Positions 1 through 59,655 of a stretch of 64,000 nucleotides of DNA are shown here, one piece after another. Source of the DNA: Methanococcus aeolicus Nankai-3. Its GTDB lineage: Archaea > AGJL01 > Methanococci > Methanococcales > Methanococcaceae. The stretch spans positions 248,563 through 312,562 of the forward strand of contig NC_009635.1 in assembly GCF_000017185.1 (NCBI RefSeq). The letters run 5' to 3'. Numbering within the stretch: position 1 is the stretch's first letter; every line of letters begins with the position of its first letter. Made by a program: the position numbers and the translations under genes. Below the pieces are notes generated by a model. That model was not told where the DNA came from. It did no database searches and saw nothing but the letters and a program-made list of their open reading frames with translations.

Positions 1-242
1 TCTTTTTTATGCCCTTCTGAAAATTCATCTGTTATAAAATTAAAATTGGGGTCTAATCTATCCTCCCAATCGGGCAAAAAATATTTTAATTTATTATTCA
101 TAGTAAATACCACAAGTATATTGTATATTAATTTAATTACAATTATTGTCAGAAAATTTAATTTTCTCTTATATCAAAACGAAGAGTGGATTTCATTTCA
201 AGTTTTTCATTCTCTCCGCTTAAAATTAATTCTTTAATTTCA

Positions 243-1901
243 TCATGTTTTTTTATCTTCTCTATGTTTTAGTTCAATTCTACTTTTTAACTCGGTGAAA
301 ATAGCATTTGCTCTCTTCTCTAAAAATACAGGGTAATCATCATTCATAATTCCAAAATCATCTAAATCATTTATAAGGTGTGATTTTAATGAATTTGGCA
401 AATCATCATTTTTATCTAAAAAACCTTGAATATAAACTGATGGTGCATTAGCACCAATCTTTCTTTTATTTAAATCCGCTCCAACTAGAGCAATATTTAC
501 AAGGCTATTTTCGTTATCAATATTATTTTTCTTTAAATATGCTTTCGGGAAAAAATGATGATAATTTTTACTATTCGCAACTTTTAACCATGAGTTATCT
601 AAAATAACTTTCCCATTATCTTGAAAATCTTTTGGCTCGTGGTATGCCAATAAACATAAAATAGCCTTACAATAACTACTTCCCGCACTGAAATTTGTTT
701 CGATTAAATCTTTTGGAGAACTTAAATGAACTTTTACCTCATCGTAGTTTGGTCTATTCCCTTTTAAAATTTCATCAATTCTTTTAATATCTTGAGCCAG
801 TTTAGATTCTGTTGAACTTGAATACCTAAATGATAGCGATATTCTCCAAAAGAATTCTTCTAAATATTTTTGTTGTTCTCCTTGTGGCCTTTCTTTCTGG
901 AAATAAAAGAAGTATGCAAAAGGAACTAATAACGAGTCATAAGGTAAAAATGCAGAAACAGGAATACGATAAACTGAACGGAAATAATCAATACTTTCTT
1001 TTAGTGCTGAAATTACATCATCCCAAATATCAATAATTTTCTGTCTGTCCAGTTGTAAAATTACGTTTCTTTTACATTCTTTGTTTTTACTTAAAATAAG
1101 TCCAAGAATACTAAGAATTACGGAACTTGAAATTGTATCATATTTACTTTGGGATAATTCTTCCAATAATGTTTTGAATCTGTCTTCCATATCAAACTTT
1201 TGTTTTTCGTCATAAGTTTTTGCGGACATAATTTCAAAAAGAGTAAGAGTCTGTCCGCCCGTATTAATTCTTGTAAACACTTCTACTGCAGAATCAATAC
1301 CCTCTTTACGAAGAACAATAGTTGAAAAGTCATAGGTTGAAAAAGTTTGAGAATATTGATGTATTTTCTTGAAATGATCATCGGAGTATTTTTCTTTTAT
1401 TTTAAGTAAATTATCATTAAAATTTAATACTTCGTTAAGTGTTATAAAGGATGTTTCTTCAGGTTCTTCTGAAATGACAATTTGATTATCATTATCTTCG
1501 ATGTCCCCATCTAAATTTACATAAATTTCTCCGTAATCAGTAATTTTCTTTTCTCCTTCTTTTTGAATTTTAGCGCCCAAGAAAGCAGCATAAAGAGAAG
1601 TAATTCTTTGTTGCCCATCTAAAACATATTGAATTTTAGTGTCGTCGTCAGGAACAGGTGGAAGTTCAAGATTACCAATGTTTTTGATATTATTTAATCT
1701 TTCGTTTGTTTCCCACAAAATAAAAGTACCTATTGGATAACCTTTCAAAATACTATCCAATAATTTTGCAGTTCTATCCAAACTCCAAACAAAATTTCTT
1801 TGAAATTTAGGGACTTTAATTTGCCCGTTTTGAATTTCTGATATTAAATCAGTGTATTTCTTTGAATCTGGTTTTGGTTGCTTGCCCATAGTATTCCTCA
1901 T
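243..1901 (-). CDS. GmrSD-like type IV restriction / DUF262 (ParB-like nuclease) N-terminal and DUF1524 (His-Me finger) C-terminal protein
   Basis: 552-aa ORF. N-terminal 'VLDGQQRITSLY' is the DUF262 DGQQR hallmark. C-terminal region 'HHFFPKAY...LVNIALVGADLNKRK' resembles the DUF1524 HNH-like motif. Contains no GGAGCTCC copies, although the motif is abundant elsewhere in the window. Confidence 0.6.
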   Translation of the reverse strand: MRNTMGKQPKPDSKKYTDLISEIQNGQIKVPKFQRNFVWSLDRTAKLLDSILKGYPIGTFILWETNERLNNIKNIGNLELPPVPDDDTKIQYVLDGQQRITSLYAAFLGAKIQKEGEKKITDYGEIYVNLDGDIEDNDNQIVISEEPEETSFITLNEVLNFNDNLLKIKEKYSDDHFKKIHQYSQTFSTYDFSTIVLRKEGIDSAVEVFTRINTGGQTLTLFEIMSAKTYDEKQKFDMEDRFKTLLEELSQSKYDTISSSVILSILGLILSKNKECKRNVILQLDRQKIIDIWDDVISALKESIDYFRSVYRIPVSAFLPYDSLLVPFAYFFYFQKERPQGEQQKYLEEFFWRISLSFRYSSSTESKLAQDIKRIDEILKGNRPNYDEVKVHLSSPKDLIETNFSAGSSYCKAILCLLAYHEPKDFQDNGKVILDNSWLKVANSKNYHHFFPKAYLKKNNIDNENSLVNIALVGADLNKRKIGANAPSVYIQGFLDKNDDLPNSLKSHLINDLDDFGIMNDDYPVFLEKRANAIFTELKSRIELKHREDKKT

Positions 1902-2208
1902 TTAATATTAAAAGTTATATTTAGCATATAAGTTTTGTTCTTTTTTTAATTTATAAATCATCGTTTTCGGAATGGAGTGGAGAAAACACAATATTATCCC
2001 CTCTTTTGTTTTAGGAAAAATCAAATTTTCAAATTTTCCAGTCCTTATTTTAAAAATCTCTCTGCAAATTATTAAATTGTTAAAAAAATGATTGCACATA
2101 ACGGTTAGGAGATGTGTGAAGTTTACGACCGTAGGGAGCAAATTTGAGCGTAGCCGAAGGCAAAGCTATTAATTTTATTTTATATTTTTATTATATAGTA
2201 ATTTAAAT

Positions 2209-3129
2209 TTATAAAGGTTTCAATGGATACTTTTTTTTACAGACAGGACAGCCCCACCGTAAATCACAAATACTACATGTTTCTTTATCTGCTGGTTTGT
2301 CTATGTTCCAATTTCCTAATTCTTTACATTTTTCAATTTCTTTAACTGTGTTTGAGAAATTTTCCATAGCTTCCTTTATTTTTTTAATATTTTTTTCATC
2401 TTTAAAATCAATAATATATTTTGGTTTTGGTGATTTTATTCTATTGAGCTCATTTACAAAATATAAAATACATTTTGAAGGATACCTTCCTGTCTGTTGT
2501 TTAAGGAGCTCCCCATAAATAAGCATTTGATATTCATATTTTTTAAGTTTATCTTCATCTTTTGATGGAAATAGCATTCCTTTATAATCCCAAATTTCGA
2601 ATTCTCCGTCCTCATTTTTTGCGATTACATCCATTACACCATATAACAAATAATCTCCCATATCTGCCTGTAATCTTACCTCCGTATCAATAATTTTAGG
2701 ATAAAGGTGTTTTCCCTCAATTTTATTAAATTTTTTTAGGAGCTCCTTTACTTGGGATATTAATTTATTATTTTCTTTACTTATTGGAATTATGCCCCTT
2801 GATTTTAATGTTTCGTTTGCTTTATTGAGGAGCTCCTCAACATCTGCTTCTGTTGGTAGCGGGTCTTTTTCAGTCAATCCCCCTTTTATAAGTTTTATAT
2901 TGTGTAAGTATCTTCTATGAAGCATACTTAAAACTTGGTGAATTAAATCACCATGCCATGCCTGAGTTTTTTGGGTGCTGGAAAATCCTTTTACAGTATT
3001 AAATCCATACTGTCTTTTGCATAGTTGATATGATAGTATATCTGCTGTAATACTGTATCTTTGCTTTATTTTTTCCTTTTCTTCCTTTTTCTTTATTTTT
3101 AAGGATTTATAGGAATTTAATTCCATCAT
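2209..3129 (-). CDS. Cas4/RecB-family PD-(D/E)XK nuclease with C-terminal Cys cluster (DUF83-like)
   Basis: 306 aa. 'VMDVIAKNEDGEFEIWDYKG' fits D...ExK; 'YQMLIY' resembles QxxxY; C-terminal 'CSICDLRWGCPVC' plus an N-terminal Cys is consistent with 4Fe-4S ligands of Cas4/AddB-type nucleases. Lies immediately downstream of the helicase gene. Confidence 0.55.
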   Translation of the reverse strand: MMELNSYKSLKIKKKEEKEKIKQRYSITADILSYQLCKRQYGFNTVKGFSSTQKTQAWHGDLIHQVLSMLHRRYLHNIKLIKGGLTEKDPLPTEADVEELLNKANETLKSRGIIPISKENNKLISQVKELLKKFNKIEGKHLYPKIIDTEVRLQADMGDYLLYGVMDVIAKNEDGEFEIWDYKGMLFPSKDEDKLKKYEYQMLIYGELLKQQTGRYPSKCILYFVNELNRIKSPKPKYIIDFKDEKNIKKIKEAMENFSNTVKEIEKCKELGNWNIDKPADKETCSICDLRWGCPVCKKKYPLKPL

Positions 3130-3146
3130 ATTAATTCCCCATTTTT

Positions 3147-5402
3147 TTAATTAATTTTATTTATATTATTCTTAAAATACGAAGTATTTTTAATATATAT
3201 TTTTAAATTATTTGGGTGTTCTTTTATAAATCCATATAATTTATGGTTATTTTTTTTGTCTATTATATCAGATGTCCATAAATGTATAAGCCCATATTGA
3301 GCCCGAGAGTATGCCACATAATGAAATCTAATAATATCTTGAAATGTTTTTTTTCGTGGTATTGTGGATATTCTCTTAAAATCCGTAAATTCTGCAAATT
3401 CTCGTTCTAATATTGCCCCGTCATTTGCTTTATTCTGCCATTTTTGGAGATATACAAACACAAACGGAAATTCTAAACCTTTTGCCTGATGCACCGTCAT
3501 TATAGGAACTTTTCCTTCTGGAATAGTTATTTCCTCGTCCTCAATATCGTCAATACCCCCTAAAAAGTGCCCCACCAATGAGCCGTAAAATTCTATTAAC
3601 CATTTTACATCAACTTTACCTTTGGTGTGCCCATCAATTGAAATACTTCCTTTGCTTATTAAATTTTCCGTGGGTATTGTAGAATAGCTATTAAATAAAT
3701 TTGTTAATTTTGCCAACCTATAACTTTTTTCCTCGTCATTTAGCCATTCCGTAAATGGATAACAGGCATATATTTTATAAAGTATATTTTCAATGGAAGA
3801 ATTAATAAAACTGCCCTCTTCCATAGTTTTTAGTTTTTCTACACTACTATCCACATATTTTTTCAATTCTGGATATTTATTTTTATTGTTTTGATATTCC
3901 TCATACCATTTTACAACTTCGTTGCTAATAGGTTGAGACCTTAAATTATTTTCTAAAACGCTTATGTCGGTATCAACAATAGATATAAACGCCCCCAACG
4001 CCAATTTTATTTCCTCTTGATTTAAAAAATTCTTTGACCGTGGATTATATATGTCAATTCCATTATTCAATAATTTTTGTCTAATATGCCCAATAAATGA
4101 ATCATTGCCATTATAATCAATTTCCCTTGTGCTTTTTATTAATATTACGCATTGGGAGTAATCCTCAATAATATCATTGTCTTTAAAATATTTTATAGTA
4201 TTTGCAACCTCTTCGGCTAATTTCTCATCGTCTTCTTTTTCAATATAATTTAAAGCTAAATAATTGTCAATTGTTTCTTTATCCATTTCTTTTTTTGCCA
4301 CTAATTGCGGTTTATCCTTTACTCTGGCTCGTTCCATTTCCACATCTTTTGTATATTTATATGAATTTATGTAGTCATCATAATATTTTACAATATCTGG
4401 GTGGGAACGATAATTTGATTTTAAAAATATTTTATTAATTTTATCTATGGGAATATTGAATTTTTCTACACAGGTTTTATCAAAATTTACCATACATTCT
4501 ACTGTTCCGCCCCTAAACCTATACATAGCTTGGTCATCATCGCCAACAACACATAAATTATTATTTTCAATTTGTTTTGCCATTTTGAAATATATTTCCT
4601 CTTGAATTGGATTTGTATCTTGGTATTCATCTACCATAATATGTTTTATTGGTGGATTATATCCCGAGCCACTTAAAAACAATTCGCCGTCTTCTGAGTT
4701 TAGAAAATCTATAAATTTTAATTGAATTGTTGAAAATGTGCACAATTTAAATCCTTCTAATTTTTCCAAATATTTTTCGCATTCCTCGGCTAATTTTTTA
4801 TGGTATATTTTGCCATTTTTCAATTTATCAATATTAACTTTATCTTCGATAATTCTATTAAATAAAGTGATGGTTGCACTGGTTAGCCGAGCTTTGTTTT
4901 TATAATCAATTATCTGACAGCATAAATCTTTATCATATCTACCTACTAAACATCTAAATTTAGTCCATATCTCTTTATATCTAGCTCCATATTTTGCAAT
5001 GGGACAGTAATTATATACAAATATATAATTTTCAATTTCATTTATTAGTTTGTAATTTTCGTAGTCTGTATATTTGTATTCCTTCATTATGTCATTGCAT
5101 AAACTATGAAGTGTGCCAACTCTTAAACTGTGTATTTCTATGGAGCTCCCTTTTAATTCTGGATATAAATCATATAATTTAGTTGAATATTTTATAATTC
5201 TATCAAATAGATTTTGTGATGCCTTTTTTGTAAATGTGGTCAAGATTATTGATTTAGGATTAACTCCATCTACAAATATTAGTTTTAGCGTTCTAACTAC
5301 CAGAACTTCTGTTTTACCAGAGCCCGGACCTGCTACTACCCACAGTGGATTATCTTTGTGATTTACACTATTTTTTTGCTCCTCATTAAATTTATATCCC
5401 AA
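3147..5402 (-). CDS. UvrD/Rep/PcrA-family superfamily 1 DNA helicase
   Basis: 751 aa with motifs I 'AGPGSGKT', II 'VDEYQDTN', III 'VGDDDQAMYRFRGG', IV 'NYRS', V 'HQAKGLEFP', VI 'YVAYSRAQ'. Confidence 0.85.
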   Translation of the reverse strand: MGYKFNEEQKNSVNHKDNPLWVVAGPGSGKTEVLVVRTLKLIFVDGVNPKSIILTTFTKKASQNLFDRIIKYSTKLYDLYPELKGSSIEIHSLRVGTLHSLCNDIMKEYKYTDYENYKLINEIENYIFVYNYCPIAKYGARYKEIWTKFRCLVGRYDKDLCCQIIDYKNKARLTSATITLFNRIIEDKVNIDKLKNGKIYHKKLAEECEKYLEKLEGFKLCTFSTIQLKFIDFLNSEDGELFLSGSGYNPPIKHIMVDEYQDTNPIQEEIYFKMAKQIENNNLCVVGDDDQAMYRFRGGTVECMVNFDKTCVEKFNIPIDKINKIFLKSNYRSHPDIVKYYDDYINSYKYTKDVEMERARVKDKPQLVAKKEMDKETIDNYLALNYIEKEDDEKLAEEVANTIKYFKDNDIIEDYSQCVILIKSTREIDYNGNDSFIGHIRQKLLNNGIDIYNPRSKNFLNQEEIKLALGAFISIVDTDISVLENNLRSQPISNEVVKWYEEYQNNKNKYPELKKYVDSSVEKLKTMEEGSFINSSIENILYKIYACYPFTEWLNDEEKSYRLAKLTNLFNSYSTIPTENLISKGSISIDGHTKGKVDVKWLIEFYGSLVGHFLGGIDDIEDEEITIPEGKVPIMTVHQAKGLEFPFVFVYLQKWQNKANDGAILEREFAEFTDFKRISTIPRKKTFQDIIRFHYVAYSRAQYGLIHLWTSDIIDKKNNHKLYGFIKEHPNNLKIYIKNTSYFKNNINKIN

Positions 5403-5486
5403 TATTGATTCAATACATTCCCAAAATTCATTTAATGATATTGTGATAATTATCCCCTCATTTTGTTCTTGTTTCGTTTATATTAT

Positions 5487-5936
5487 TTATTTATTTATTG
5501 AAATAAGCCAATTTTTAAGTTGTGATAATCTTTCCCCTATCATACCATGCCCAATTATTGCATTATTATTTTTTAATATCTCTTTTCCCCTGTCCCCTAG
5601 TGCCAATTCATAGGTTTTTCCCATTGTTATAAATATTTCATCATAATTGTTATTCTTTAACTCTTGTTTTAATTTTGTAATTACTTGATTTTGTAATTCT
5701 TTTGCTCTTTTGGGTGTCATTACTTCATCATAATAATCTATTATATGGTTTGAATTAATTAATCCATATTTTGCCGATAAAATTAAAATATTTAAATTGT
5801 TATTATTATTCTCTTTTAAATTAAAATTTTTTCTTAAAACTTTATAATACATACCATTGTATAAATCTATTGCAGGAATATTATATTTATGGTGTTTTGT
5901 CTTTGAGCAGGATAAAATTAATAAATAATTTTTCAT
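5487..5936 (-). CDS. hypothetical protein (149 aa), co-oriented with the helicase
   Basis: ORF with N-terminal 'LILSCSKTKHH' motif; no family recognised from sequence alone; 14-bp gap to the upstream kinase-like gene. Confidence 0.4.
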   Translation of the reverse strand: MKNYLLILSCSKTKHHKYNIPAIDLYNGMYYKVLRKNFNLKENNNNNLNILILSAKYGLINSNHIIDYYDEVMTPKRAKELQNQVITKLKQELKNNNYDEIFITMGKTYELALGDRGKEILKNNNAIIGHGMIGERLSQLKNWLISINK

Positions 5937-5950
5937 ACTTTCCCTTAATA

Positions 5951-6661
5951 TTATATTTTAAGTATGGTATTTTTATATATTTTTAGGAGCTCCCTTACTA
6001 CGACATAATCTTTTTCTGGAATATTTAATATTTCTTTTATTTTTTTTGAAGTATAACATTTGCCATAAAATAAAGATATAGCACCGGTAAAATTATGTGG
6101 CTTATTTTGTTTTTTTGCCTTATCAAAATCCAATAATTTTACAATGACATTGTTATTTTCCCTATTAATTATTATATGCTTCCCGCCTTGTATTTCTGTA
6201 TGGTCTATTTTGTGCAAATCTAATTTTAAACATTGTTTCATTGTTTGTCGTATAATTTGTAGGAGCTCCCTTTTATCAATATTATCCTGTTTCAAATAAT
6301 CCTTTAAATTAACTCCTTCTAGGAGCTCCATCATCAAAAAATTTTCAGAATAATTATAAACTATTGGGGCTACTCCAAATTTATTTGTTTCCATCATTAT
6401 TGTAGCTTCATTTATTATGGTATTTTTTGAATTAACTCTTGGGACTTTTAAAGCTATATGCTGATATTTAGTATTATCGTTATTATACCATAATCCTTTA
6501 AAAACTACTCCTCTGTGCCCCTTTCCAATAAAATCTAATAATTTTATATTCTGGTTTTTTGTGGTTTCTTTTAGGAGCTCCCAATCTACCAAATTATGAA
6601 TTATGGGGTGTTTTTTAAATTCTTCAATCTTTAAATTATTAAAATCATTAAAATTATTCAT
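5951..6661 (-). CDS. atypical protein-kinase-like protein (RIO/Bud32-like fold)
   Basis: 236 aa. Gly-rich loop 'IGKGHRGVVFKG', beta3 lysine 'IALKV', hinge 'MMELLEG', 'LDLHKIDH...N' catalytic-loop-like region, and 'LLDFDKAK' resembling a DFG-type metal-binding motif. Contains 4 GGAGCTCC copies in 711 bp. Confidence 0.45.
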   Translation of the reverse strand: MNNFNDFNNLKIEEFKKHPIIHNLVDWELLKETTKNQNIKLLDFIGKGHRGVVFKGLWYNNDNTKYQHIALKVPRVNSKNTIINEATIMMETNKFGVAPIVYNYSENFLMMELLEGVNLKDYLKQDNIDKRELLQIIRQTMKQCLKLDLHKIDHTEIQGGKHIIINRENNNVIVKLLDFDKAKKQNKPHNFTGAISLFYGKCYTSKKIKEILNIPEKDYVVVRELLKIYKNTILKI

Positions 6662-6720
6662 AATTCACCATAACTACTAAAATTAAATATAAAAATAAAC
6701 TTAAATAAATTATTTAATAA

Positions 6721-6933
6721 TTAAAATATAAATTTCAATGCAACATATAATAATATTATAAATAAAACTCCAGCAATTGCCAATTTAAAAGCTGTTTTTA
6801 TTGCGGATATTGCTACTTTTATTATTATAATTAATATCAATATTGCCACAATTGCTGTAATTATATCTTCTATCATATTTACCCTCCCCGGTTCTTTTTT
6901 GAAGTCTAAACCGTGCTTCGCACGGTATCTCAA
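6721..6933 (-). CDS. small hydrophobic membrane protein (70 aa)
   Basis: Two predicted TM helices; ORF only. Confidence 0.3.
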   Translation of the reverse strand: MRYRAKHGLDFKKEPGRVNMIEDIITAIVAILILIIIIKVAISAIKTAFKLAIAGVLFIILLYVALKFIF

Positions 6934-7030
6934 AATTTTCTGGAAATTAAAACTCTAAAAAATATTATAATATTTGAAATTAAAATAATAAAATACAATA
7001 TATAAAATATATAATACAAAATATAAAAAA

Positions 7031-9970
7031 TTATTCAATATAAATAGCAACTTTATTTGGAATTGCAAATCTCTTTTTATTTCCAATGTCTTCCCCATTC
7101 ACAATTATTTTACATTGGAATTCATTTTCAAGGAATTGTTTTGCATCATTTAATATGTTCTCTTCGTCTATTGGGTTAGAAATTCCATTTTTAACTATTT
7201 CATTTATTAATTTTGGAATTTCTTTTCCATATCTTCTTAATTCTGCATTTTTCATAATCAATGGCATCATTTTATTAACGGGAGCTCCTTTATTTTCCAT
7301 CATAATTTTTAAAACTTCAAATTTCCAGTCATCAGCAGTATATAAATAAATAGTTTTTGGGGCGATATTTGCTATATTTATTATATTTCTTATATCGTCC
7401 ATTGTGTTTTTTATGAATTCTTCCCCCAATTCACAATTTTCATTTATATAACTATTATCTAGTTGCGGGAATGTTTCATTTGATATATAATTATTATTTT
7501 TATTATATCCAAACATCTCCCAAATTTCTTCGCATAAATGGGGTGTAATTGGTGCCAATACCTTTGTCCATATTTCAACAACATATTTTAATAGCTGGTT
7601 GTTATTTCCTCCTCTTCTTTTATACCACTTCAAATTATGAGTTAAACCATAAAATAAAGTTCCTATTTTTCTAAGCTGGAATTCATTATATGATTCATTT
7701 ATTATTTTTAAATCAGAATGAACTTTATGCAATAGCCATTTATCAATGGTGGATAATTCTGTTATTGTTTTTTCTGTATCCTTTAACTCTGTTGCCAATT
7801 CATAAAATCTAATTAAATTATCCCTTGCATGTTCCATTTCTTTAAATTTAACATCTGCATCGTGGGGGAGCTCCGCACATGTTGTAATGTAAAACCTACC
7901 TACATCAGGACCATAATTTGTTGCAACCTCCTCAATAGGAAGAACAGGACCTTTTGATTTAGACAATTTTTTACCTTCAATAGTTACATAGCCATTTACA
8001 ACAATTCCCTTTGGGTAGTATTTTTCATCATCAAATAAAGCCACATGGTTAAATATCATAAATGTTAAATGATTTGGAACAAGGTCTTTTGCCGAACATC
8101 TCCAATCAAGCGGATAATAATATTCAAATTCATTTCTCATTTCATTTATTAACTCAACAGGTATTTTTGTATTATTGGATATTTCGTTTATATCTCCTTT
8201 TCCATAATATACATAGTCAAACAACTCTGGAATAAGTTGTTCTGGCAATATATTGTTGGTATTTATTGTTTTTGCCACTGTATAATATGCCATATATAGA
8301 GTACTATCTGAAAGACTTTCAATAACCCAATCTTTATCAAATGGAAACCTTGTTCCAAGTCCTTTTTTCCTTGCACAGGCTTTATCCTTCATCCAATCAA
8401 TTTTATTGTGGAAATCCATCCTTATAGTTTCAGGCACAAAATTCATTTTATCTACCCAATTATGTGCCTTTTTTTTCCATTCTAAATCAGAATATGTAAT
8501 AAACCATTGCCCTTTAACAGTTTTTACAATACATTTTTCACCGCATCTACATACCACTTCTGGAATGGAAAATTCTTGAAGTGTTTCGGCCATATTGTTA
8601 TTTATAAAATCACTTGCTAACTTGTCTTTAATGTCCCTTACGGCAATTCCCTCATATTCTCCACAATTTTCATTTAATATCCCCTTGTGAAATTCCTGTT
8701 TATAAATTGTATGTGTGGCATCCTCTAATTTTTCGTCCTTTTGGTTTGTTATGCCCATTTTTTCTACAATTTCCTTTGCAGGATATTTTCCATATCCATC
8801 TATTTTTATAAGGGATATTAATTCATCATCAGTTAATTCTTTATTAATGCTACTGTAGTAATCCCTAAGTGCTACAAAATCCTTTGGAGCATGTGCTGGA
8901 ACACTCATTACACAGCCTGTTCCCATTTCGGAGCTCACAAAATCAGCAGGATATAGTGGAACCTCCTTATTATTTACTGGATTTATTACAATTTTTCCTA
9001 CCAATTCCTCTCCCTTTATTTCTTTTATTAATTCTACTGTTCTATCTTGATTTTTAAGTTTATCTGAGGCTTCTTTACTTACTATCCAAATGCCATTATA
9101 TTTTAACGATATTTCGTCGCTACCTTCCTCTTGGCTTTGCACTTCATCATAAACCTTTATTATGTGGTATGTATCATTTGGATTTATCCAAGCATTGACT
9201 ACTCCATATATTGTTTCTGGTCTAAGTGTGGCCATTGGGATTATACATTCATATTCTTTATCTTCGCCGTCTATTTCGATATTTAATTTTGTTTTAAATT
9301 TCAACAATATATATTCTTGAAGTGTTGCCTCCTCCCCCTTTAATAAATCGTGGTCTTCCACAGGATTATCACAACTTGGGCAATATCTAACAGGGTGCGA
9401 ACCTTTTACTATTAAATTTTTCTCTTTTAATTTTAAAAATTGCCATTCTACAAATTTTTTAAATGTTTCGTCATCTGTTTTAAAGTTCCTTCTCCAATCA
9501 AGAGCAAATCCCATTTTTTTAAATGATTCCGTAGCCTTTTTTGAAAAATAATTTACTATATTTTCTGGTGTTGTGAGTGTTTGGAGCTCCCCCATAGGAA
9601 TATTATGAAGTTTGTTGTATGCCCAAATAGTTTCTGGTGCCTGTTTTTTTAGGAGCTCCGCCAATCCAATAATTGGGGTTCCACTAACATGAAAACCAAA
9701 AGTCCATAATACTGTTTTATTATTCATTCTTTGGTATCTTGCCGTTATTTCGGGAATTGTAAAAGTTCTTAAATGTCCAGCATGGAGCACTCCATTTAAA
9801 TAAGGAAATGCTGCTGTAATAAAAAATTTATCTTTTTTTTCTTGTTCCGTATATTTTAATTTAGATGGATTTTCAAATATTTTATCTTCTTCCCATCTTT
9901 TTTGCCATTTTTCCGCAATCTTAACAAAATCAACGCTCATGTTATCAGTCCCTATATTTTTATAGTTCAT
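7031..9970 (-). CDS. leuS: leucyl-tRNA synthetase
   Basis: 979 aa; HIGH motif 'LHAGHLRTF', KMSKS motif 'KLSKSKG'; archaeal LeuRS length. Confidence 0.9.
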   Translation of the reverse strand: MNYKNIGTDNMSVDFVKIAEKWQKRWEEDKIFENPSKLKYTEQEKKDKFFITAAFPYLNGVLHAGHLRTFTIPEITARYQRMNNKTVLWTFGFHVSGTPIIGLAELLKKQAPETIWAYNKLHNIPMGELQTLTTPENIVNYFSKKATESFKKMGFALDWRRNFKTDDETFKKFVEWQFLKLKEKNLIVKGSHPVRYCPSCDNPVEDHDLLKGEEATLQEYILLKFKTKLNIEIDGEDKEYECIIPMATLRPETIYGVVNAWINPNDTYHIIKVYDEVQSQEEGSDEISLKYNGIWIVSKEASDKLKNQDRTVELIKEIKGEELVGKIVINPVNNKEVPLYPADFVSSEMGTGCVMSVPAHAPKDFVALRDYYSSINKELTDDELISLIKIDGYGKYPAKEIVEKMGITNQKDEKLEDATHTIYKQEFHKGILNENCGEYEGIAVRDIKDKLASDFINNNMAETLQEFSIPEVVCRCGEKCIVKTVKGQWFITYSDLEWKKKAHNWVDKMNFVPETIRMDFHNKIDWMKDKACARKKGLGTRFPFDKDWVIESLSDSTLYMAYYTVAKTINTNNILPEQLIPELFDYVYYGKGDINEISNNTKIPVELINEMRNEFEYYYPLDWRCSAKDLVPNHLTFMIFNHVALFDDEKYYPKGIVVNGYVTIEGKKLSKSKGPVLPIEEVATNYGPDVGRFYITTCAELPHDADVKFKEMEHARDNLIRFYELATELKDTEKTITELSTIDKWLLHKVHSDLKIINESYNEFQLRKIGTLFYGLTHNLKWYKRRGGNNNQLLKYVVEIWTKVLAPITPHLCEEIWEMFGYNKNNNYISNETFPQLDNSYINENCELGEEFIKNTMDDIRNIINIANIAPKTIYLYTADDWKFEVLKIMMENKGAPVNKMMPLIMKNAELRRYGKEIPKLINEIVKNGISNPIDEENILNDAKQFLENEFQCKIIVNGEDIGNKKRFAIPNKVAIYIE

Positions 9971-10329
9971 TATAATTATATTGTTTCGTCATAATATGAT
10001 ATATAATATTATAGATTATATTTTATAATATTTTATATAATTCTTGTATAATTTATATTTTAAATATATTTTAACTTATATTTTTACAAAATATGCATAT
10101 TTATCAAATAATATAAATAATAGATGTTATTACTTTTATAAATAATATAACTTGCTCAAAAACCTATTTAATAATAGCAATAGTTATAATAATAGTATAC
10201 TATCATTATAATAATACTATAACAATATCAAGATAATTATGATTATAACAATTATAAAATAATTATTATCATAATATTAAATATTTTTTTAATATGCAGT
10301 TAATTAAACTATACGCATAAAACGGTGAA

Positions 10330-11703
10330 ATGATGGAAAACTTTTCAGAATGGTATCATAATATACTTGAAACAGCTGGAATATATGATTTAAGATATCC
10401 TTTAAAAGGTTGCGGTGTTTATCTCCCCTATGGATTTAAAATAAGAAGATATGCATTTGAAGCCATAAGAGATATGCTTGACGAATCAAACCACGATGAA
10501 GCACTATTCCCAATGTTAATTCCAGAAGATTTATTGGCAAAGGAAGGAGAACATATTAAAGGATTTGAGGAGGAAGTTTATTGGGTTACACATGGGGGAA
10601 CTACTCCACTTGATGTAAAACTTGCTTTAAGACCAACATCAGAAACTCCAATATATCACATGATGAAATTATGGATAAAAGTTCATACAGATTTGCCAAT
10701 AAAAATATATCAAATTGTAAATTCATTTAGATATGAAACAAAGCACACCAGACCACTTATAAGATTAAGAGAAATAATGACCTTTAAAGAGGCACATACA
10801 GCACATTCCACTAGCGAAGAGGCTGAGGCACAGGTGCAAACTGCACTAAATATATATAAAACATTCTTTGATAGGATGGGAGTTCCTACAATTGTATCGC
10901 AAAGACCAGAATGGGACAAATTCCCCGGTGCAGATTATACAATGGCTTTTGATACTATATTCCCCGACGGAAAAACTATGCAAATTGGGACGGTGCATAA
11001 TTTGGGGCAGCATTTTGCAAAAACTTTTGAATTGGAGTTTGAAACCCCGGAAGGAGGAAAAGACTACGCATACCAAACATGCTATGGTATTTCAGATAGA
11101 ATAATAGCTTCAATAATAGCACTACACGGAGATGAAAAAGGGCTTATATTGCCACCAGAAGTAGCTCCGCACCAGATTATAATTATTCCATTATTATTTA
11201 AAGGAAAAGAAGAAATTGCAATGAATAAAGCAAAAGAAATATATAAATCACTTAAAAACACATACAGAGTAAAATTAGATGATAGAGATATAAGACCAGG
11301 CAAGAAATTTAATGACTGGGAATTAAAGGGAGCTCCCATAAGGATAGAGTTGGGACCAAGAGATATTGAAAATAATAAATTAACAATTTACAGAAGAGAT
11401 ACAGGCGAAAAATTCCAAATAGATGAGGATAATTTATTAAATGAGCTAAATACTCTTATTGATTCAATAGAAAATACAATTAAAGAAAAGGCAGAACAGA
11501 AAGTTAAATCTTTTATTACAATATTGGATAATCATGATGTTAATAACATTAAAGAAACATTATCCACCAAAAAAGGAGTTGTATTGGTTCCTTATGACGA
11601 AAATATATATACTGAGGAATTTGAGGAAGAAATTGATGCTTCTGTATTGGGGACTACTGAATATGATGGGAAAAAGTATATTTCTATTGCTAAAACATAT
11701 TAA
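10330..11703 (+). CDS. proS: prolyl-tRNA synthetase (archaeal/eukaryotic type)
   Basis: 457 aa; class II aaRS motifs, N-terminus '[14 protein letters not shown]' typical of archaeal ProRS. Confidence 0.88.
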
Positions 11704-12089
11704 TTATTTTTTTATCTTATTTTTTATTAATTTTTGCAATGCTCTGCTGAATTATTCGTGGGGGCAGGTCAGAATAATATTTTGGATTATTTTAATAATG
11801 TATTTTCTAAAAATTAGTAAATACTATTTCCAAGTTTTGGGAGCTCCCTCGTTGAAGCATACTCTAAACTTGTGAGCCGTTATCATTTTTTATCGCGAAG
11901 TGTTTTTTTTATATTATGTTGTAATGTTGTGGAGTATTTAACTATTCGGCATTCATTTCTTTCACATGATGATTTGCTAACTATTTCGGAATAGTCTTCC
12001 TACCAAAAAGATAAAAGATAAAAAATATAAATTATAATTATTTATATTGATGTATATTTAAGTGTAATTTTAATAAAACAGGCGATAAT

Positions 12090-13754
12090 ATGTTTGGCAT
12101 TGCAAAAATTAAAGATAGGATTATAAAAAAAATTAAATCATTCGAAGGGTGGATTTCAGACGGTAATAATTATTTAGATGTTAAAGATTACAAAAATGCA
12201 GCGGATTGTTATTATAATGCACTAAATAAAAATCCAAATGATGATAAGGCATGGTATTCTATGGCTTATGCATTATATAAACTGGGAGATTATAAAGCTT
12301 CATTTGATGCGATTAATGAGGCTTTGAAGTTAAATCAAGATAATCCAACAAAATATCATTATCTAAAAGGTAGTATTTATTATGCTCTTGGCAGATATAT
12401 TGATGAAGATGAATCCTATAATTTAGAAGATAATAAAAGTTACCTGGAAGAGGCTTTTACTAATCTAAATAGTTATTATGAACAAAATAGACAGAATACC
12501 TCCGCACTTATAAAAATGGGGAAGATATTGATATATTTTGGGGAATTTGAAAAAGCACATATTATTTTTAAAAAATGTTATAATTTAAATCCAAATAGTG
12601 TATGTAGAGATTTTATAAAAAATTATAATATTACAATTAAAAATATAGATAGTTTTGAATATATTGAAAGAGGATTATCTTTACTTAACAGCAAAAAATA
12701 TATTGATGCAATAAAATATATCAATAAAGCATATGAATTAAATGAATTAAATGAGCTCCCAATATATTATAAAAGTTGTATTTATGAGTATTTTAGAGAC
12801 TATAAAAAAGCACTATCTTGTATAGATACTTCTTTAAGAATGGTCGAGAGAGACATATTTTTTAGTAAAAAAGGAGATATTCTTTTTAAATTAGGAAAAT
12901 ACAACGATGCAATCAACTGCTATGAAAAAGCACTGGATATTAATGACGATTTACCTTATGCATACTTGGGGTTAGGTATATTATATTATAATATTGAAAA
13001 ATATGATTTTGCCCTTGAATGCTTTGACAACTTATTTGAGCTATATATGGAGCATTTAACTGATGATGAGAAATATCTGATTACAACATATACACTCATT
13101 GGAATGGGGGACATCACCAACAATATTGATTTTTTTGAAGAAGCCCTTAATTATATTGATAAACAGATTAACAGAGATATGGATAATATAGATTTATGGA
13201 GTCTAAAAGGATATGTCTTATTTAAAATGGGAAAATATAGGGAAACACTTGGGGTATATAATAATGCGTTGAGTATAGACCCCACCAATATAGGAATATT
13301 AGAATCCATTGCCATCACTTATGAAAATCTTGGAAAATTTAATGATGCCATTAGAACATACGAAAAACTTTTAAAATTAAATCCGGACGACGAGAAATAC
13401 ATTAATGCAAAATACGGTGCTGAAAATTTAATGTTTGAAAATAAAACAACCCATAAAATCATCACATCACCATTGTTAAATGAAATTACCCTACATTATA
13501 AGATAAAAAATATTGAAATATATATTATGGAACTGGTAGTAAAATATGTAAATGAAAATAATCCTACGGTGGCCTACCATCTGCTTATACATTTGGAAGA
13601 ATATATGGACAGTAATGAATTTCCAGAAATAGAGATATTAAAGAGAAAACTAATGATTGAGATATATAAATATATTGAGAATAAAAGAAATGTTGATGAT
13701 TACACATTAAATCTTACTAAACAATTGCTGTTATCAATTAAAGAATATCAATAA
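12090..13754 (+). CDS. TPR-repeat protein
   Basis: 554 aa with many 34-residue repeats (W/LG/Y/A/F/A/P pattern, 'AxxxYxxALxxNP'). Confidence 0.7.
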   Translation: MFGIAKIKDRIIKKIKSFEGWISDGNNYLDVKDYKNAADCYYNALNKNPNDDKAWYSMAYALYKLGDYKASFDAINEALKLNQDNPTKYHYLKGSIYYALGRYIDEDESYNLEDNKSYLEEAFTNLNSYYEQNRQNTSALIKMGKILIYFGEFEKAHIIFKKCYNLNPNSVCRDFIKNYNITIKNIDSFEYIERGLSLLNSKKYIDAIKYINKAYELNELNELPIYYKSCIYEYFRDYKKALSCIDTSLRMVERDIFFSKKGDILFKLGKYNDAINCYEKALDINDDLPYAYLGLGILYYNIEKYDFALECFDNLFELYMEHLTDDEKYLITTYTLIGMGDITNNIDFFEEALNYIDKQINRDMDNIDLWSLKGYVLFKMGKYRETLGVYNNALSIDPTNIGILESIAITYENLGKFNDAIRTYEKLLKLNPDDEKYINAKYGAENLMFENKTTHKIITSPLLNEITLHYKIKNIEIYIMELVVKYVNENNPTVAYHLLIHLEEYMDSNEFPEIEILKRKLMIEIYKYIENKRNVDDYTLNLTKQLLLSIKEYQ

Positions 13755-13815
13755 AAAAAGGACATTATTATTATTATTATTATTTATATATTACATAAAT
13801 TATTATGGTGACGCC

Positions 13816-15336
13816 ATGAACAAAATCGGTGTAGTTTATGAGGATACGGGAATATCTGAATGTCAAATAATGTGTGATAAAAAAATAAGATTCGGGGAGT
13901 TTGTATTACTTAAAAATATTGACAATATTGAGGTATTGGGGATTATTAAAAATATTAGGGCAAAAGATGATAAATTATTGGGCGTAGTTTCCATCGTGGG
14001 AGCCCTAAATGGACAAAATTTACTTCCAAATAGAAGTCCAATAAAACCAAATAGTGAAGCACTTTTAGGGGATGATTCAATATTATCTAAATTATATTAT
14101 GATAATAAAGGTTTAAATGTGGGGCATCTATTAACACGGGATTCTGTAAGAGTGTATTTAAACACAAATAAACTTATTTCAAGGCATTTTGCAGTTTTAG
14201 CAGTCACTGGGGGAGGTAAGTCAAACACAATTGCAGTATTATGTAGGGAGCTCGCAAAAATAAATGCCACAACTGTAATAATAGACCCGCATGGGGAGTA
14301 TATGTCAATGAGTCATGAGGATATGGAAGGTAGATTAAATCCTATGACTGCAAAATTAGACCCTTCAATTATGTCTCCCTCAGAATTTGCAGATTTAATA
14401 GGACTTAAAGAAGATAATAGAAAGGAAAGAATATTCTTAAATATGGCATTCCATACGATAAAGTAGAAAGAAAGGGAGGAATATAAAAAACAGTATCGAG
14501 GTAAAGTGTTTGTTGAACAAATAATGGATTTAATTGGTGAATGGGCAAATAATTCTATTGTTGGATGGGAAGTAAAATATTACAATCACATAAAAAATAA
14601 ATATGGCAGTAGGAAGTTGGATAAAGAAGACACAGACACATTGCTTACTGTGTTAGATGCTATTGGAGATTTTGAAGCAGGTTTTTCGGCAAATATTACC
14701 AAAGGAGATATTATTGAGAATTTTCAAAGGGGCAAATTAAATATAGTTGATTTAAGCGGTTTTGAAGTAAATCAGATGGTAGCATTAGTTTCATATATTG
14801 CAAAACAGCTTTTAACAAATAGAATTTCATATGCAAAATCAAAAAGGGATTTATACAATCATGATGAAAAGATACGGAGCTCCGCGAGAAATACGATGTA
14901 CCAGTTGGAATCCAAATTTCCAGCACTTACAAAACCAATTGTTATGATTGTTGAGGAGGCACATATATACATTCCAAAAAATAAGGAAACCGATGCCTCA
15001 TACTGGCTCGGAAAAATAGCAAGAGAGGGCAGAAAATTTGGAATAGGTTTGGGAATAATCTCACAGCAACCAAAAAAATTAAACGAAGATGTTTTGAGCC
15101 AGACAAATACAAAAATTATACTTAGAATAGTAGAACCAGAAGACCAAAAATATATCCAAAAAGCTTCTGAGGATTTAGGGGAAGATTTAGTAAAAGACCT
15201 TACATCACTTGGCATTGGTGAGGCGGTGATTACAGGAACTGCAATAAAACTTCCTGCAATAGTTAAAATTGATAAATTCGATGGGGCATATGGCGGAGAG
15301 GATATAAACATTTATGAGGAATGGAACGAGTTATGA
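13816..15336 (+). pseudogene. HerA/DUF87-like P-loop ATPase, reading frame interrupted by a single in-frame TAG at 14464-14466
   Basis: ORFs 13816-14466 and 14506-15336 are in the same frame and joined by 13 sense codons. N-terminal barrel-like region, Walker A 'AVTGGGKSNT', Walker B 'VMIVEEAH'. Combined length about 506 aa, typical of HerA. Confidence 0.6.
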
Positions 15337-17081: not shown

Positions 17082-18407
17082 ATGAGGTATATAATGGAGA
17101 AAATATTTGATAAGAAACATAAAGATTTTGCAGAAAAGATATCAAAAAATATAGGCTTGGAAGAATGGTATGACTGGAAATGGCAGTTGAAAAACTCCAT
17201 AAGGGATATAGACACTTTTGAAGAAGTTATAGGCATAAAATTCCATGAAGACGAAAAAGCAGAATTGCAGGAAGCAGCAGATGTATTTCCACTGTCAATA
17301 ACGCCATATTATGCATCATTGATAGATGTAAAAAACTTCAGAGAAGACCCTATTTTTAAGCAGTCTTTTGTTGGCGTAGAAGAATTAATAACCGAGAACT
17401 TTGAGATGGCTGACCCATTGGCTGAAGATAAAGATTCTCCGGTTCCAGGATTAACACATCGTTATCCAGATAGAATATTATTTTATATCAGTCATGCCTG
17501 TGCGGTATATTGTCGTCATTGCACCCGTAAAAGGAAAGTAGGCGATACAGATAGTATTCCGTCAAAAAAACAGATAGAAAAAGGACTGGATTATATTCGA
17601 AACAACCCTCAAATTAGGGATGTTCTTTTATCAGGGGGGGACCCACTACTTTTGCCTGATGATTATTTAGACTGGATTTTAACTGAGTTGTGGAGTATAC
17701 CACACATTGAAGTGATTAGAATAGGTACGAGAGTTCCTGTGGTTTTACCTTATCGTATTACCGATGAATTAGTAAATATGCTGAAAAAGCACCATCCGCT
17801 ATGGATAAATACTCATTTTAATCATATAAAAGAAATAACAAAATCTTCAAAAAATGCATTAAGAAAACTGGCAGATGTTGGAATTCCTTTGGGGAATCAG
17901 TCAGTATTATTGCGGGGGGTTAATGACTGTCCAAATGTCATTAAAAAACTTAATCAAAAATTGGCTGCAAATAGGGTAAGACCATACTATCTTTTCCAGT
18001 GTGATTTATCGGAGGGGCTTTCACATTTTCGTACATCTGTGAGAAAAGGAGTTGAAATTATAGAAAGTTTAATTGGCCATACAAGTGGATTTGCAGTTCC
18101 AAGGTATGTTGTAGATGCACCTGGCGGAGGAGGTAAAATACCAGTCATGCCAAACTATGTAATTTCATGGGGGACTGACAGGGTTATTTTGAGAAATTAT
18201 GAGGGCGTTATTACCACCTACAAGGAACCAGAGCACCAGGATGATTGCAGTAAAGATTGTACGGGCTGTGAAAGAGGGCTGGCAGAGGAAGGAGAAGAGC
18301 ATGATTTAGTTGGAATAGAGAAGTTACTCTTTAATTCGGCAGATGACACAATATCTCTAGTTCCACAAGGAACTGAAAGAATTGATAAAAGGGACAATAA
18401 TGGATAA
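17082..18407 (+). CDS. ablA: lysine 2,3-aminomutase (radical SAM)
   Basis: 441 aa; '[11 protein letters not shown]' CxxxCxxC radical-SAM motif and KamA-family length; followed by a GNAT gene as in the methanogen ablAB operon. Confidence 0.85.
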
Positions 18408-19230
18408 AATAACAAATATCCATGGTTCAGTTATTCAGTTGAGTGATTTGAACGATAGAATATATTTGATGAAGTTGAATCAAGATAAAATAGGGGAATT
18501 ATTGCCACAATTAAATGAAATTTGTGTTAAGAGAGAATATACAAAGATATTCGCCGTGATACCAAATAATTTAAAAAAAGAGTTTGAAAATGAATGTTAT
18601 GTGGAAGAGGCTTTTGTAAAGGGATATTTTTTAGATGATGATGCAATATTTATGTCAAAATATTTTAGTAAGGATAGAAAAATTAGTAGGTTTCCTGAAA
18701 AAGTGAAGGAAGTATTAAATGTTGCAGAAAATAAAAGACCCATTAAATCATGCTCTAATTTAGACTCCAATTTCTCATTGGGTGTTGTTAATAAAGATGA
18801 CGCGGGAGAACTGGCAAATTTGTATAAAAAAGTGTTTGAAACCTACCCATTCCCAATTTATGACCCAAATTATATTATTAAGATGATGAACTCCAATGTA
18901 GTTTATTTTGCAATAAAACATTCTGGTAAAATCGTGGCAGCGGCATCGTCCGAAATAAATAAGGAAAATCGATGTGTTGAAATGACAGATTTTGCTGTAT
19001 TGCCAGAGTATCAAGGTCATAGATTAGCCCAACAGTTACTTTTTGCAATGGAAGATGAAATGAGAAATAAAGGGATTAGAGTAGCATATACAATTGCCAG
19101 GGCGCTGTCCTTGGGCATGAATATCACATTTGCAAAACTTGGATATAAATATACGGGAACTCTTGTAAATAACACGAATATTTGTGGAAAGCTGGAAGAC
19201 ATGAATGTTTGGTACAAACATTTAAAATAA
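18382..19230 (+). CDS. ablB: GNAT acetyltransferase, probable beta-lysine N6-acetyltransferase
   Basis: 282 aa, C-terminal GNAT fold ('[15 protein letters not shown]'); overlaps the ablA 3' end, suggesting translational coupling. Confidence 0.7.
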
Positions 19231-30454: not shown

Positions 30455-30737
30455 TATAGTAAGTTCAATAACTGTCCCTTATCCCTTCTATTATTAAACA
30501 AAATCCTTTTAGGATTTTATACAAAAGCATAGCTTTTGTAAACGAATTTTCATTTATTGGTAATAGGTTAGATTTTAGCTTTAATAGGATCTCTAAATTT
30601 TCCTCTGAAAAATTTATACGACCTTAAAAACTCCTCCGGAATTTTGGGTCGTAAAAACTCCTCCGGAATTTTGAGATCGTAAAAATCGCTTTGCGATTTT
30701 GAGACGGTTTAGTGAAAAAGACCGAAGATTGACTATA
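30455..30737. mobile_element. MITE-like element, long copy (~283 bp) with internal tandem hairpin-containing repeats
   Basis: Termini TATAGTAAGTTCAATAACTGTCCC ... GTGAAAAAGACCGAAGATTGACTATA; internal about 3x 29-bp units 'CGTAAAAACTCCTCCGGAATTTTGRG'; last unit holds the hairpin AAAATCGC-TTT-GCGATTTT. Confidence 0.65.
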
Positions 30738-59418: not shown

Positions 59419-59655
59419 TATAGTCAATCTTCGGACATTTTCGCTAAACCATCTCAAAATCGCAAAGCGATTTTTACGATCTCAAAACTCCGAAGGAGTT
59501 TTTACGACCCAAAATTCCGGAGGAATTTTTAAGGTCGTATAAATTTTTCAGAGAAAAATTTAGAGATATTTTAAAGCTAAATTCTACTATTACCAATAAT
59601 AAAGAATGATTTAATGATTTGGACTATAAAGAACAGTTATTGAAGATTAACTATA
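59419..59655. mobile_element. MITE-like element, long copy in inverted orientation relative to 30455-30737
   Basis: Roughly the first 170 bp is the reverse complement of the 3' part of the 30455 copy (TATAGTCAATCTTCGG...CGCAAAGCGATTTTTACGATCTCAAAA...); ends ...GAACAGTTATTGAAGATTAACTATA. Confidence 0.65.

Follow-up and report, generated by a model that had tools for sequence, protein, structure and literature searches.

What is encoded by the tightly packed minus-strand genes at the left end of a 64,000-nucleotide stretch of the Methanococcus aeolicus Nankai-3 genome (NC_009635.1, positions 248,563 to 312,562; hereafter the window), and which of them belong together? An earlier note had described five genes there, encoding a kinase-like protein, a 149-aa protein of unknown family, a UvrD helicase, a Cas4-like nuclease and a GmrSD-like protein, as a candidate defence or DNA-processing module of no named type. 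An open reading frame (ORF) listing reproduced all five with their coordinates. What had been missed is a sixth gene, dpdA, which begins at position 101 and extends the cluster beyond position 243, and with it the connection to 7-deazaguanine. Modification of DNA by 7-deazaguanines is established experimentally only for the eleven-gene bacterial Dpd island and for phages. We propose here that the locus is very probably a 7-deazaguanine DNA-modification island, and we lean, by a much smaller measure, towards reading it as a complete Dpd-like restriction–modification system that lacks DpdB.

The first 33 codons of dpdA occupy positions 1-101 on the minus strand, after which the gene leaves the window at its left edge; translation from 101 to 3 gives MNNKLKYFLPDWEDRLDPNF..., the N-terminus of DpdA, a DNA-guanine transglycosylase. 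The full-length gene is intact in Nankai-3 (ABR55819.1/WP_011972951.1, 426 aa) and already bears the name DpdA in RefSeq, while the system to which it belongs appears to be undescribed. Over 313 aa, the product of the window-edge gene is 99% identical to a 426-aa protein of a sister strain (CP104873, our locus L001). The sister-strain protein reaches 420.7 bits with the NCBIfam NF041059 DpdA equivalog model (cutoff 200), matches the PADLOC DpdA model at 7.6e-121 and matches the structure of Salmonella DpdA (7ui4) at 3e-76. It keeps the equivalents of Asp95, Asp130, Asp256 and Phe99 as well as the CxCxxC..H zinc site; the functions and essentiality of the Salmonella residues come from mutagenesis (PMC10164549), and D102, D139 and D273 are invariant across our family alignment. 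On one Logan contig (SRR253113; L011 3241-4533) frameshifts break dpdA into three ORFs (218, 126 and 99 aa). The gene is intact on contigs L012 and L013, as in ABR55819.1, and the frameshifts are probably read or assembly indel errors and not a sign of a pseudogene.

The 149-aa protein (5487-5936, minus strand) is not an orphan, as had been thought, but a member of Pfam DUF6884 (PF21818; 1.2e-17, 64.8 bits against a cutoff of 30) with a weaker match to YaaA, and can be described as a short relative of DpdC, of YaaA and of the C-terminal half of ArcS. Its family is defined by a YaaA-like 'cantaloupe' fold bearing the motifs CxxxK and LSAxxG (PMC11701544); both motifs are intact here (C10-S-K-T-K14 and L53-S-A-K-Y-G58) and invariant in the family, and the AlphaFold2 model of the protein has a predicted local distance difference test score (pLDDT) of 93.4. 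The PADLOC DpdC profile matches it at 1.7e-6, over only positions 49-124 of 319. DpdC, a DUF328 protein of the same superfamily, turns preQ0-DNA into ADG-DNA in vitro (PMC10164549), and ArcS acts on tRNA-borne preQ0, with phage 'ArcS homologues' lying beside DpdA (PMC6884629). Because these relatives act there, the DUF6884 fold family is repeatedly tied to chemistry on nucleic-acid-borne preQ0. Its relation to ArcS could be followed through a 608-aa protein of the tRNA-guanine transglycosylase (TGT) family from Methanoperedens, the C-terminal half of which carries Pfam DUF5591, TGT_C2 and PUA. Since AF0587 matches this half at 1e-61, better than it matches ArcTGT, the 608-aa protein is probably an archaeosine synthase (ArcS). 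When the two were compared with hhalign, the DUF6884 CSxxK fell on the PCSAKKPY motif of this putative ArcS (E=4.5e-4, probability 33%). Searching the PDB with a DUF6884 sequence profile gave nothing beyond chance matches to TRPC5, and this family had to be approached through a fold search.

The two genes that follow DUF6884 encode a 751-aa UvrD/PcrA-type superfamily 1 (SF1) helicase (3147-5402, minus strand; ABR55822.1; Pfam UvrD-helicase 3.3e-51, UvrD_C 2.4e-18) and a 306-aa PD-(D/E)XK nuclease (2209-3129, minus strand; Pfam PDDEXK_1 3.2e-19). Pfam therefore backs the family assignments that had been made for both, as it does for the kinase-like gene. Motifs I-VI of the helicase are intact and invariant across its family, and in the nuclease family C37, D167, D181, K183, Q201, Y205, C285, C288 and C294 are invariant. 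The C-terminal cluster of three cysteines noticed earlier (C285, C288 and C294) is indeed present, and is completed by the N-terminal C37; all four are found in every one of the 21-23 family members compared, and this pattern of one N-terminal and three C-terminal cysteines predicts an AddB-type Fe-S site. In Foldseek, the AlphaFold2 model of the nuclease (pLDDT 78) matches the Argonaute-associated Cas4-family protein ACE1, the nuclease domains of AdnAB and AddAB, Cas4, Exo5, MGME1 and RecB, with fold matches that include 6ppu and 3u44, so the resemblance to AddAB and AdnAB that the earlier note had remarked on gains support at the level of the fold. A PDB sequence search with the nuclease gave only a marginal match to ACE1 (E=0.05). 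The protein stays below the Cas4 equivalog cutoff (TIGR00372, 22 bits against 65), the AddA and AddB models score 15-111 bits against NCBIfam cutoffs of 486-860, and RecB is also far below its cutoff. The nuclease is thus Cas4/AddB-like and yet not a Cas4, and with no CRISPR-like repeat array in the window it is stand-alone, as had been proposed. By Pfam, the helicase ends at UvrD_C and carries no nuclease domain, and the nuclease carries no helicase-like domain. The nuclease family is rare: an exhaustive search with hidden Markov models (HMMs) found 100 representatives at E<=1e-30 among 1.84 billion cluster representatives, and in many of the 100 the nuclease forms the C-terminal domain of a UvrD::nuclease fusion 920-1070 aa long.

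Do these four genes form a unit outside M. aeolicus? A block of DUF6884, UvrD, PD-(D/E)XK nuclease and a TGT-like gene (412-426 aa) recurs around the DUF6884 homologues examined, from Methanothermococcus sp. Ax23, two JGI metagenome contigs, a Methanoperedens metagenome-assembled genome (MAG) and GCA_002496705. When GTDB was scanned with the DUF6884 alignment, each species being represented by a single genome, 80 loci with a small DUF6884 were obtained, which were classified with HMMs built from the seed proteins. DUF6884 is accompanied by UvrD and DpdA in 19 of the 80, in archaea and bacteria, and the nuclease is present as well in 16 of these. Across all the loci examined, the combination of all four is seen in Methanococci, Methanoperedens, Thermoplasmata, Nitrosotalea, Dehalococcoidia, Planctomycetota and Bacillaceae. 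Ten of the 19 loci of this UvrD type have four separate genes (including those of Methanothermococcus, Ca. Pyrohabitans, Methanoperedens, Nitrosotalea, Thermoplasmata and Dehalococcoidia). Another six, from Planctomycetota, Phycisphaerae and a deltaproteobacterium, encode a DUF6884::DpdA fusion of 589-616 aa, confirmed by Pfam and PADLOC, followed by UvrD and the nuclease. The last three have UvrD and DpdA with no separate nuclease match, one of them holding a 918-aa UvrD::nuclease fusion between DUF6884 and DpdA. Because the fusions join exactly these partners, the module divides into a writer pair (DpdA and DUF6884) and a motor–nuclease pair (UvrD and nuclease). Contexts anchored on the nuclease only tell the same story, as DpdA and a DUF6884 or DpdC-like gene were present in three of three, for instance in a Bacillaceae MAG (UvrD, nuclease, DUF6884, TGT) and in GCA_027068595 (DUF6884, UvrD, nuclease, DpdA). 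On a further metagenome contig (JGI 3300033153, L172 1-7933), UvrD and the nuclease diverge from an operon of queD, queC, queE, folE2 (GCHY-1), a 293-aa DpdC-like gene and dpdA; here the full preQ0 pathway is wired to the module. In none of the 19 UvrD-type loci did we find an ORF with the DGQHR motif of DpdB within 9 kb, and no protein of the window has a PADLOC match to DpdD-K.

The kinase-like gene is the member of the original set that does not belong. It encodes a Bud32/RIO-like small kinase of 236 aa (5951-6661, minus strand; Pfam PK_Tyr_Ser-Thr 5e-11) and, in the earlier note, formed with the 149-aa gene, UvrD and the Cas4-like nuclease an unnamed system to which GmrSD was a later neighbour. 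That proposal drew on the co-orientation of the four genes and on gaps between them of 14-84 bp (the spacings from the kinase-like gene through the 149-aa, UvrD and nuclease genes to GmrSD are 14, 84, 17 and 307 bp), and weak PADLOC kinase matches to mad6 and PD-T4-6 could be added in its favour. However, orthologues of the kinase-like gene are found across Methanococcales and stand beside PAC2 throughout the order without the other genes. In M. vannielii, M. okinawensis IH1 and Methanotorris igneus the kinase is followed directly by PAC2 and the dpd genes are absent from the site (the order in M. okinawensis is ProRS, LeuRS, a 51-aa ORF, kinase, PAC2), and in M. aeolicus and Methanothermococcus Ax23 the block from DUF6884 to DpdA lies exactly between kinase and PAC2. 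Because the kinase–PAC2 pair is kept without dpd genes and the island is inserted between its members, the kinase is a housekeeping neighbour that forms the left flank of the island and not one of its components. Outside Methanococcales, none of the loci carrying the module contains a kinase, and the real fourth partner of the module is DpdA. The four-gene unit headed by the kinase is thereby refuted, and we give the system built on it almost no credence; what survives of it is the tight linkage of the 149-aa gene to the helicase and nuclease across phyla. The same empty sites confirm the suspicion that helicase and nuclease are not housekeeping genes here.

The motor–nuclease pair itself can be exchanged. 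About 25 of the 80 loci are of a HerA type, in which DUF6884 is grouped with a NurA-like protein (~590 aa), HerA (~630 aa) and a DpdA/TGT-like gene (L022, L024, L027, L028, L035, L037, L038, L045, L071, L073 and L077 among them). They occur in Cyanobacteria, Chloroflexota, Aquificota, Thermococcaceae and other groups, and DpdA::DUF6884 fusions adjoin HerA in Methanosarcina, Methanolobus, Methanoculleus and Methanomassiliicoccaceae. The NurA-like protein belongs to no Pfam family and has a weak C-terminal NurA match, and the partner DpdA/TGT-like gene is divergent in sequence. As HerA and the NurA-like protein occupy the same slot, the motor–nuclease slot is replaceable. PDC-M57 of PADLOC was considered as a description of the module and set aside: only its subunit A matches, to DUF6884, and the partners in the HerA-type loci miss the PDC-M57 models; our literature search found no mention of PDC-M57. 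Elsewhere in the survey, DUF6884 has only a weak TGT-like neighbour (7 of the 80 loci) or is found on its own or at the end of a contig (about 29). In viruses the writer pair travels by itself, since DUF6884 lies beside a short phage-type DpdA in 8 of 72 IMG/VR loci, and none of the 72 combines it with HerA, UvrD or the nuclease, a pattern in keeping with a modification pair and an effector that only hosts possess.

These patterns bear on another explanation, in which DpdA and DUF6884 write an epigenetic or protective mark, UvrD and the nuclease replace DpdB by opening or nicking DNA for guanine flipping, and nothing is restricted. Salmonella DpdA needs the ATPase DpdB, which is absent here, so that some other ATPase plausibly fills its role; TGT enzymes are generally known to act on flipped bases in unpaired loops; and several loci have housekeeping surroundings. 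However, base exchange alone would hardly call for a conserved nuclease with its catalytic residues intact (D167, D181 and K183 are invariant), the alternative occupant of the slot is another translocase–nuclease pair, and viruses that modify their own DNA have DpdA and DUF6884 without any such pair. We consider modification alone unlikely, although it is the strongest competitor to the restriction–modification reading.

Is the locus a stable part of the genome or a mobile one? Comparison with the sister strain by BLASTN revealed cassettes nested within the island. In that strain the nuclease gene and dpdA are adjacent, and the stretch of about 2.05 kb that separates them in Nankai-3 (~136-2190, minus strand), which contains the GmrSD-like gene, is an insertion with no counterpart in L001 except for a 95-bp leader. 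Conversely, the sister strain holds a 5.1-kb insertion (MmeI-type methyltransferase, Eco57I/N6_Mtase and T5orf172) between UvrD and the nuclease, which are only 17 bp apart in Nankai-3. The leader lies at 1941-2035 on the minus strand (5066-5160 in reverse-complement numbering of the window) and aligns with 84% identity to L001 12789-12881, at the start of the unrelated cassette of the sister strain; it is single-copy in the window, and L001 has a partial third copy at ~17706-17730. The same leader is thus seen to head two unrelated cassettes at different positions of one operon, and could be a cassette-borne promoter or recombination site. A target-site duplication was looked for at the cassette ends and dismissed, the only candidate being a short AT-rich overlap of ~16 bp that is indistinguishable from low-complexity sequence. 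Just past the nuclease stop, at the start of the GmrSD cassette, a GC-rich patch (GCCTTCGGCTACGCTCAAATTTGCTCCCTACGGTCG...; 2105-2170, minus strand) stands out from the AT-rich spacer; it has no tRNA or Rfam match.

An island with nested defence cassettes agrees with the defence context that had been suspected, and type I restriction–modification fragments, McrB-like and MazE genes and insertion sequence (IS) genes lie near the module at other loci. It agrees less well with a role in DNA repair, in which DUF6884 would sense damaged or abasic sites in the manner of YaaA or YfjM, the TGT-like enzyme would remove or exchange damaged guanine, and UvrD and the nuclease would excise the strand. YaaA has a link with oxidative stress, YfjM is among the proteins found to interact with abasic and RNA-base lesions, and a repair role has been suggested for DUF6884 by the Pfam curators. 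Enzymes such as UvrD and the RecB-type nucleases are also well known from repair, and the analogy with AddAB and AdnAB holds at fold level. Such a role would not account for the patchy, island-like distribution with empty sites in sister species, for the defence cassettes, for the preQ0 biosynthesis genes linked at one locus, for an equivalog-level DpdA (an enzyme that inserts preQ0) or for the carriage of the DUF6884–DpdA pair by viruses. DNA repair therefore seems to us a poor bet.

The cargo of the Nankai-3 cassette is a 552-aa protein of the GmrSD family (243-1901, minus strand; ABR55820.1). The DUF262 half of its earlier DUF262/DUF1524 assignment is firm (Pfam GmrSD_N 1.1e-32), and the NTPase motifs described for GmrSD (QR, DGQQR and FxxxN; PMC12137116) are present as KFQRNF, DGQQR and FTRIN. 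The DUF1524 half was undetected by Pfam at E<=0.1, and a HH...N...N pattern can be picked out by eye (YHHFFP...NIALVGADLNKRK). PADLOC matches to PDC-M55C (2.7e-65) and HEC-05 (3.7e-36, residues 16-544) cover nearly the full length. The HEC-05 match and the by-eye pattern hint that a C-terminal DUF1524 nuclease of the His-Me finger type may be present. The gene encodes a probable type IV (modification-dependent) restriction enzyme, carried as nested, strain-specific cargo. Neither the sister strain nor any other locus with the core module has it, so the recent acquisition suggested for it stands on the strain comparison, and not on the motif counts discussed below. As the sole ParB/DUF262-type gene in the window it was also considered as a substitute for DpdB, on the strength of a ParB-like fold and weak matches to DGQHR and DpdB models (DpdB model 12 bits against a cutoff of 300); this was rejected on the same absence from the sister strain and all other loci. 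GrwAB, of the GmrSD family, restricts 7-deazaguanine-modified phage DNA (PMC12137116), so the enzyme here would have to target another modification or spare the derivative made by its host.

The presence of GmrSD in the operon might invite yet another interpretation, namely a type IV-like defence in which DpdA and DUF6884 recognise or strip 7-deazaguanine in viral DNA and the helicase and nuclease destroy that DNA. Base exchange by TGT enzymes is in principle reversible, and defence glycosylases as well as GmrSD-like enzymes that act against 7-deazaguanine phage DNA are now known. However, the active site and zinc site of DpdA are those of the inserting enzyme, GmrSD is strain-specific and missing at all other loci, and a full preQ0 synthesis pathway beside the module at one locus points to writing and not to erasing. 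We regard this erasing role as very improbable, more so than DNA repair.

The acquisition argument of the earlier note had relied on the sequence GGAGCTCC, a palindrome of 8 bp that includes SacI and AluI sites. Its counts were reproduced (none in GmrSD, one in UvrD, 55 in the 64-kb window, where 0.16 would be expected), but the depletion carries no statistical weight as a sign of acquisition (Poisson P=0.24 for GmrSD and 0.42 for UvrD). Most copies are intragenic (sites include 2505, 5986, 6262, 6322 and 6574), other GC-containing 8-mer palindromes have <=2 copies each in the window, and gaps of 4.6-6.1 kb free of GGAGCTCC occur elsewhere in it. The sister strain has 16 copies in 20 kb and none in its inserted 5.1-kb cassette. 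The motif looks like a 'highly iterated palindrome' of the HIP1 type. It was also tried as a target or product of the island and discarded: GAGCTC is enriched in Methanothermococcus Ax23 and in the island-free M. okinawensis and not in M. vannielii or Methanotorris, and the motif is missing at other dpd-like loci. Because the enrichment does not follow the presence of the island, GGAGCTCC is not tied to it.

How, then, does the module compare with systems already known? With Dpd (dpdA-K) it shares a DpdA of equivalog level, in which the zinc site and the catalytic Asp residues are the same, a DpdC-related protein of the DUF328/DUF6884 superfamily, and an island-borne, patchy and horizontally mobile distribution linked to preQ0 supply. 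In contrast to Dpd, it has no DpdB, the ParB-like DGQHR ATPase required there for preQ0 insertion, and none of DpdD-K, which include SNF2 and DEAD helicases and a PLD nuclease; in their place stand one UvrD SF1 helicase and one Cas4/AddB-type Fe-S nuclease. Moreover, it comprises four genes in about 5.5 kb and not eleven in about 20 kb, and it is present in archaea as well as bacteria. With DpdB and all of DpdD-K absent, the locus is not a Dpd system in the strict sense. The 7-deazaguanine modules of phages, in which DpdA occurs with ArcS-like, Gat-QueC or QueC proteins (PMC6884629), likewise have DpdA without DpdB and a small ArcS/DUF6884-like partner adjoining it. Unlike the present module, they have no helicase–nuclease pair, their DpdAs are shorter (240-330 aa) and more divergent, and their role is anti-restriction and not host defence.

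The motor–nuclease pair has its own relatives. Like AddAB and AdnAB it combines a UvrD-family SF1 motor with a RecB-type nuclease bearing the AddB-type 1+3 cysteine Fe-S site, and some relatives are single-chain helicase::nuclease fusions, as AddA and AdnB are. It differs from these two-subunit machines, in which each subunit joins an SF1 helicase-like domain to a RecB nuclease domain, in consisting of one motor and one nuclease on separate chains, with no second, inactive helicase subunit, and in being always linked to DpdA and DUF6884 and not to recombination genes. Gabija (GajA/GajB) also pairs a UvrD-type helicase (PADLOC GajB matches reach 4e-31) with a nuclease in an island context. However, the nuclease here is a PD-(D/E)XK enzyme with an Fe-S site, whereas GajA is an OLD-family ATPase-TOPRIM, and ORFs and Pfam revealed no OLD or TOPRIM protein in the island; in addition, Gabija-type pairs lack a DNA-modifying arm. 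The resemblance to Cas4 is limited to fold and cysteine pattern, the neighbours here being UvrD and GmrSD or DpdA. Finally, the HerA/FtsK 'BREX-related capture' system (PMC12839542) resembles the HerA-type sibling in joining a TGT/DpdA-like enzyme to HerA. It contains PglZ, DUF6079, a STAND NTPase, DUF4007 and GNAT, whereas the sibling has only DUF6884, a NurA-like protein, HerA and a DpdA-like enzyme, and a 2026 survey states explicitly that it has no DpdC homologue (PMC12839542). We found no description of a module of DpdA and DUF6884 with either UvrD and nuclease or HerA and NurA in the literature, with the reservation that a mention in two key earlier papers is not excludable.

How might the four genes work together? 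We envisage a mobile island between the kinase-like gene and PAC2, with a four-gene core made of two sub-modules. In the marking module, DpdA would swap guanine in the DNA of M. aeolicus for preQ0, which these archaea already make for tRNA archaeosine. DUF6884 would then convert the 7-cyano group of the preQ0 in DNA, in the manner of either DpdC (to the amide, dADG) or ArcS, with the Cys-x3-Lys pocket as the likely active site. UvrD and the Fe-S nuclease would form the restriction arm, which unwinds and degrades unmarked DNA. UvrD may in addition provide the ATP-dependent opening of DNA that DpdB supplies to Salmonella DpdA, a possible stand-in suggested because no DpdB is present.

Several considerations weigh against a DpdB-less restriction–modification system of this kind. 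To our knowledge, no 7-deazaguanine has been found experimentally in the DNA of any cellular archaeon. Salmonella DpdA requires DpdB (PMC10164549), and that the DpdA of M. aeolicus would be active without it is assumed by analogy with phage DpdAs. DUF6884 is half as long as DpdC (about 150 against about 310 aa), and its chemistry is a prediction; a role in DNA damage has been proposed by the Pfam curators for one member of the family, YfjM (PMC11701544). We infer that the helicase and nuclease discriminate modified from unmodified DNA, and the pair could assist modification instead. The GmrSD-like enzyme within the operon must spare any mark made by the host, some of its relatives being able to attack 7-deazaguanine DNA. 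The survey was seeded on DUF6884, which biases the linkage frequencies, with three contexts anchored independently; and several loci are surrounded by housekeeping genes and not by obvious defence islands.

The rest of the window contains other features. Past the kinase-like gene, the ORF listing gives LeuRS at 7031-9970 and ProRS at 10330-11703. Rfam and tRNA scans of positions 1-12000 for an integration site or RNA component returned no tRNA and one sub-threshold chance match, and a scan for sigma-70 promoters and terminators stayed at the level of shuffled sequence and is in any case uninformative for an archaeon. At 12090-15336 (plus strand) the gene for a 554-aa TPR protein precedes a HerA-like ATPase that is divided between two ORFs (DUF87, 216 aa, 13816-14466; HerA_C, 276 aa, 14506-15336); the identical split is found in the sister strain (L001 423-1943), and this could be a disrupted or a two-piece HerA. 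A lysine-2,3-aminomutase gene (LAM_C and radical SAM) followed by a GNAT acetyltransferase gene at 17082-19230 (plus strand) is probably ablA/ablB, for synthesis of the osmolyte N-epsilon-acetyl-beta-lysine, and thus ordinary housekeeping. Short tandem arrays, not CRISPR-like, lie at 30625-30685 and 59451-59531 and hold 2-3 copies at a period of 27-28 bp; their units, TAAAAACTCCTCCGGAATTTTGAGATCG and ATCTCAAAATCCGAAGGATTTTTACG, are related and are roughly reverse complements of one another.

What follows for 7-deazaguanine biology depends on how far these predictions carry. At their boldest, they describe a minimal class of 7-deazaguanine restriction–modification systems, undescribed and widespread, in which DpdA and DUF6884 are joined by an interchangeable pair of end-resection type (UvrD and Fe-S nuclease, or HerA and NurA-like protein). 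The resection enzymes would read the modified base as 'self', in the role that belongs to Chi with AddAB and RecBCD, and M. aeolicus would be the first cellular archaeon predicted to carry chromosomal 7-deazaguanine. We put this forward tentatively, and with more doubt than conviction. The four-gene version, with its clean division into a writer pair and a single helicase–nuclease pair, offers a much simpler system in which to learn how a 7-deazaguanine mark is read, and would show whether DpdA can function without DpdB. The interchange of UvrD and nuclease with HerA and NurA-like proteins ties end-resection machinery to modification-based immunity. DUF6884 gains a concrete and testable role, and a false 'kinase' component is dropped. 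The module also predicts 7-deazaguanine DNA chemistry in cultured archaea, for which the type strain Nankai-3 is available.

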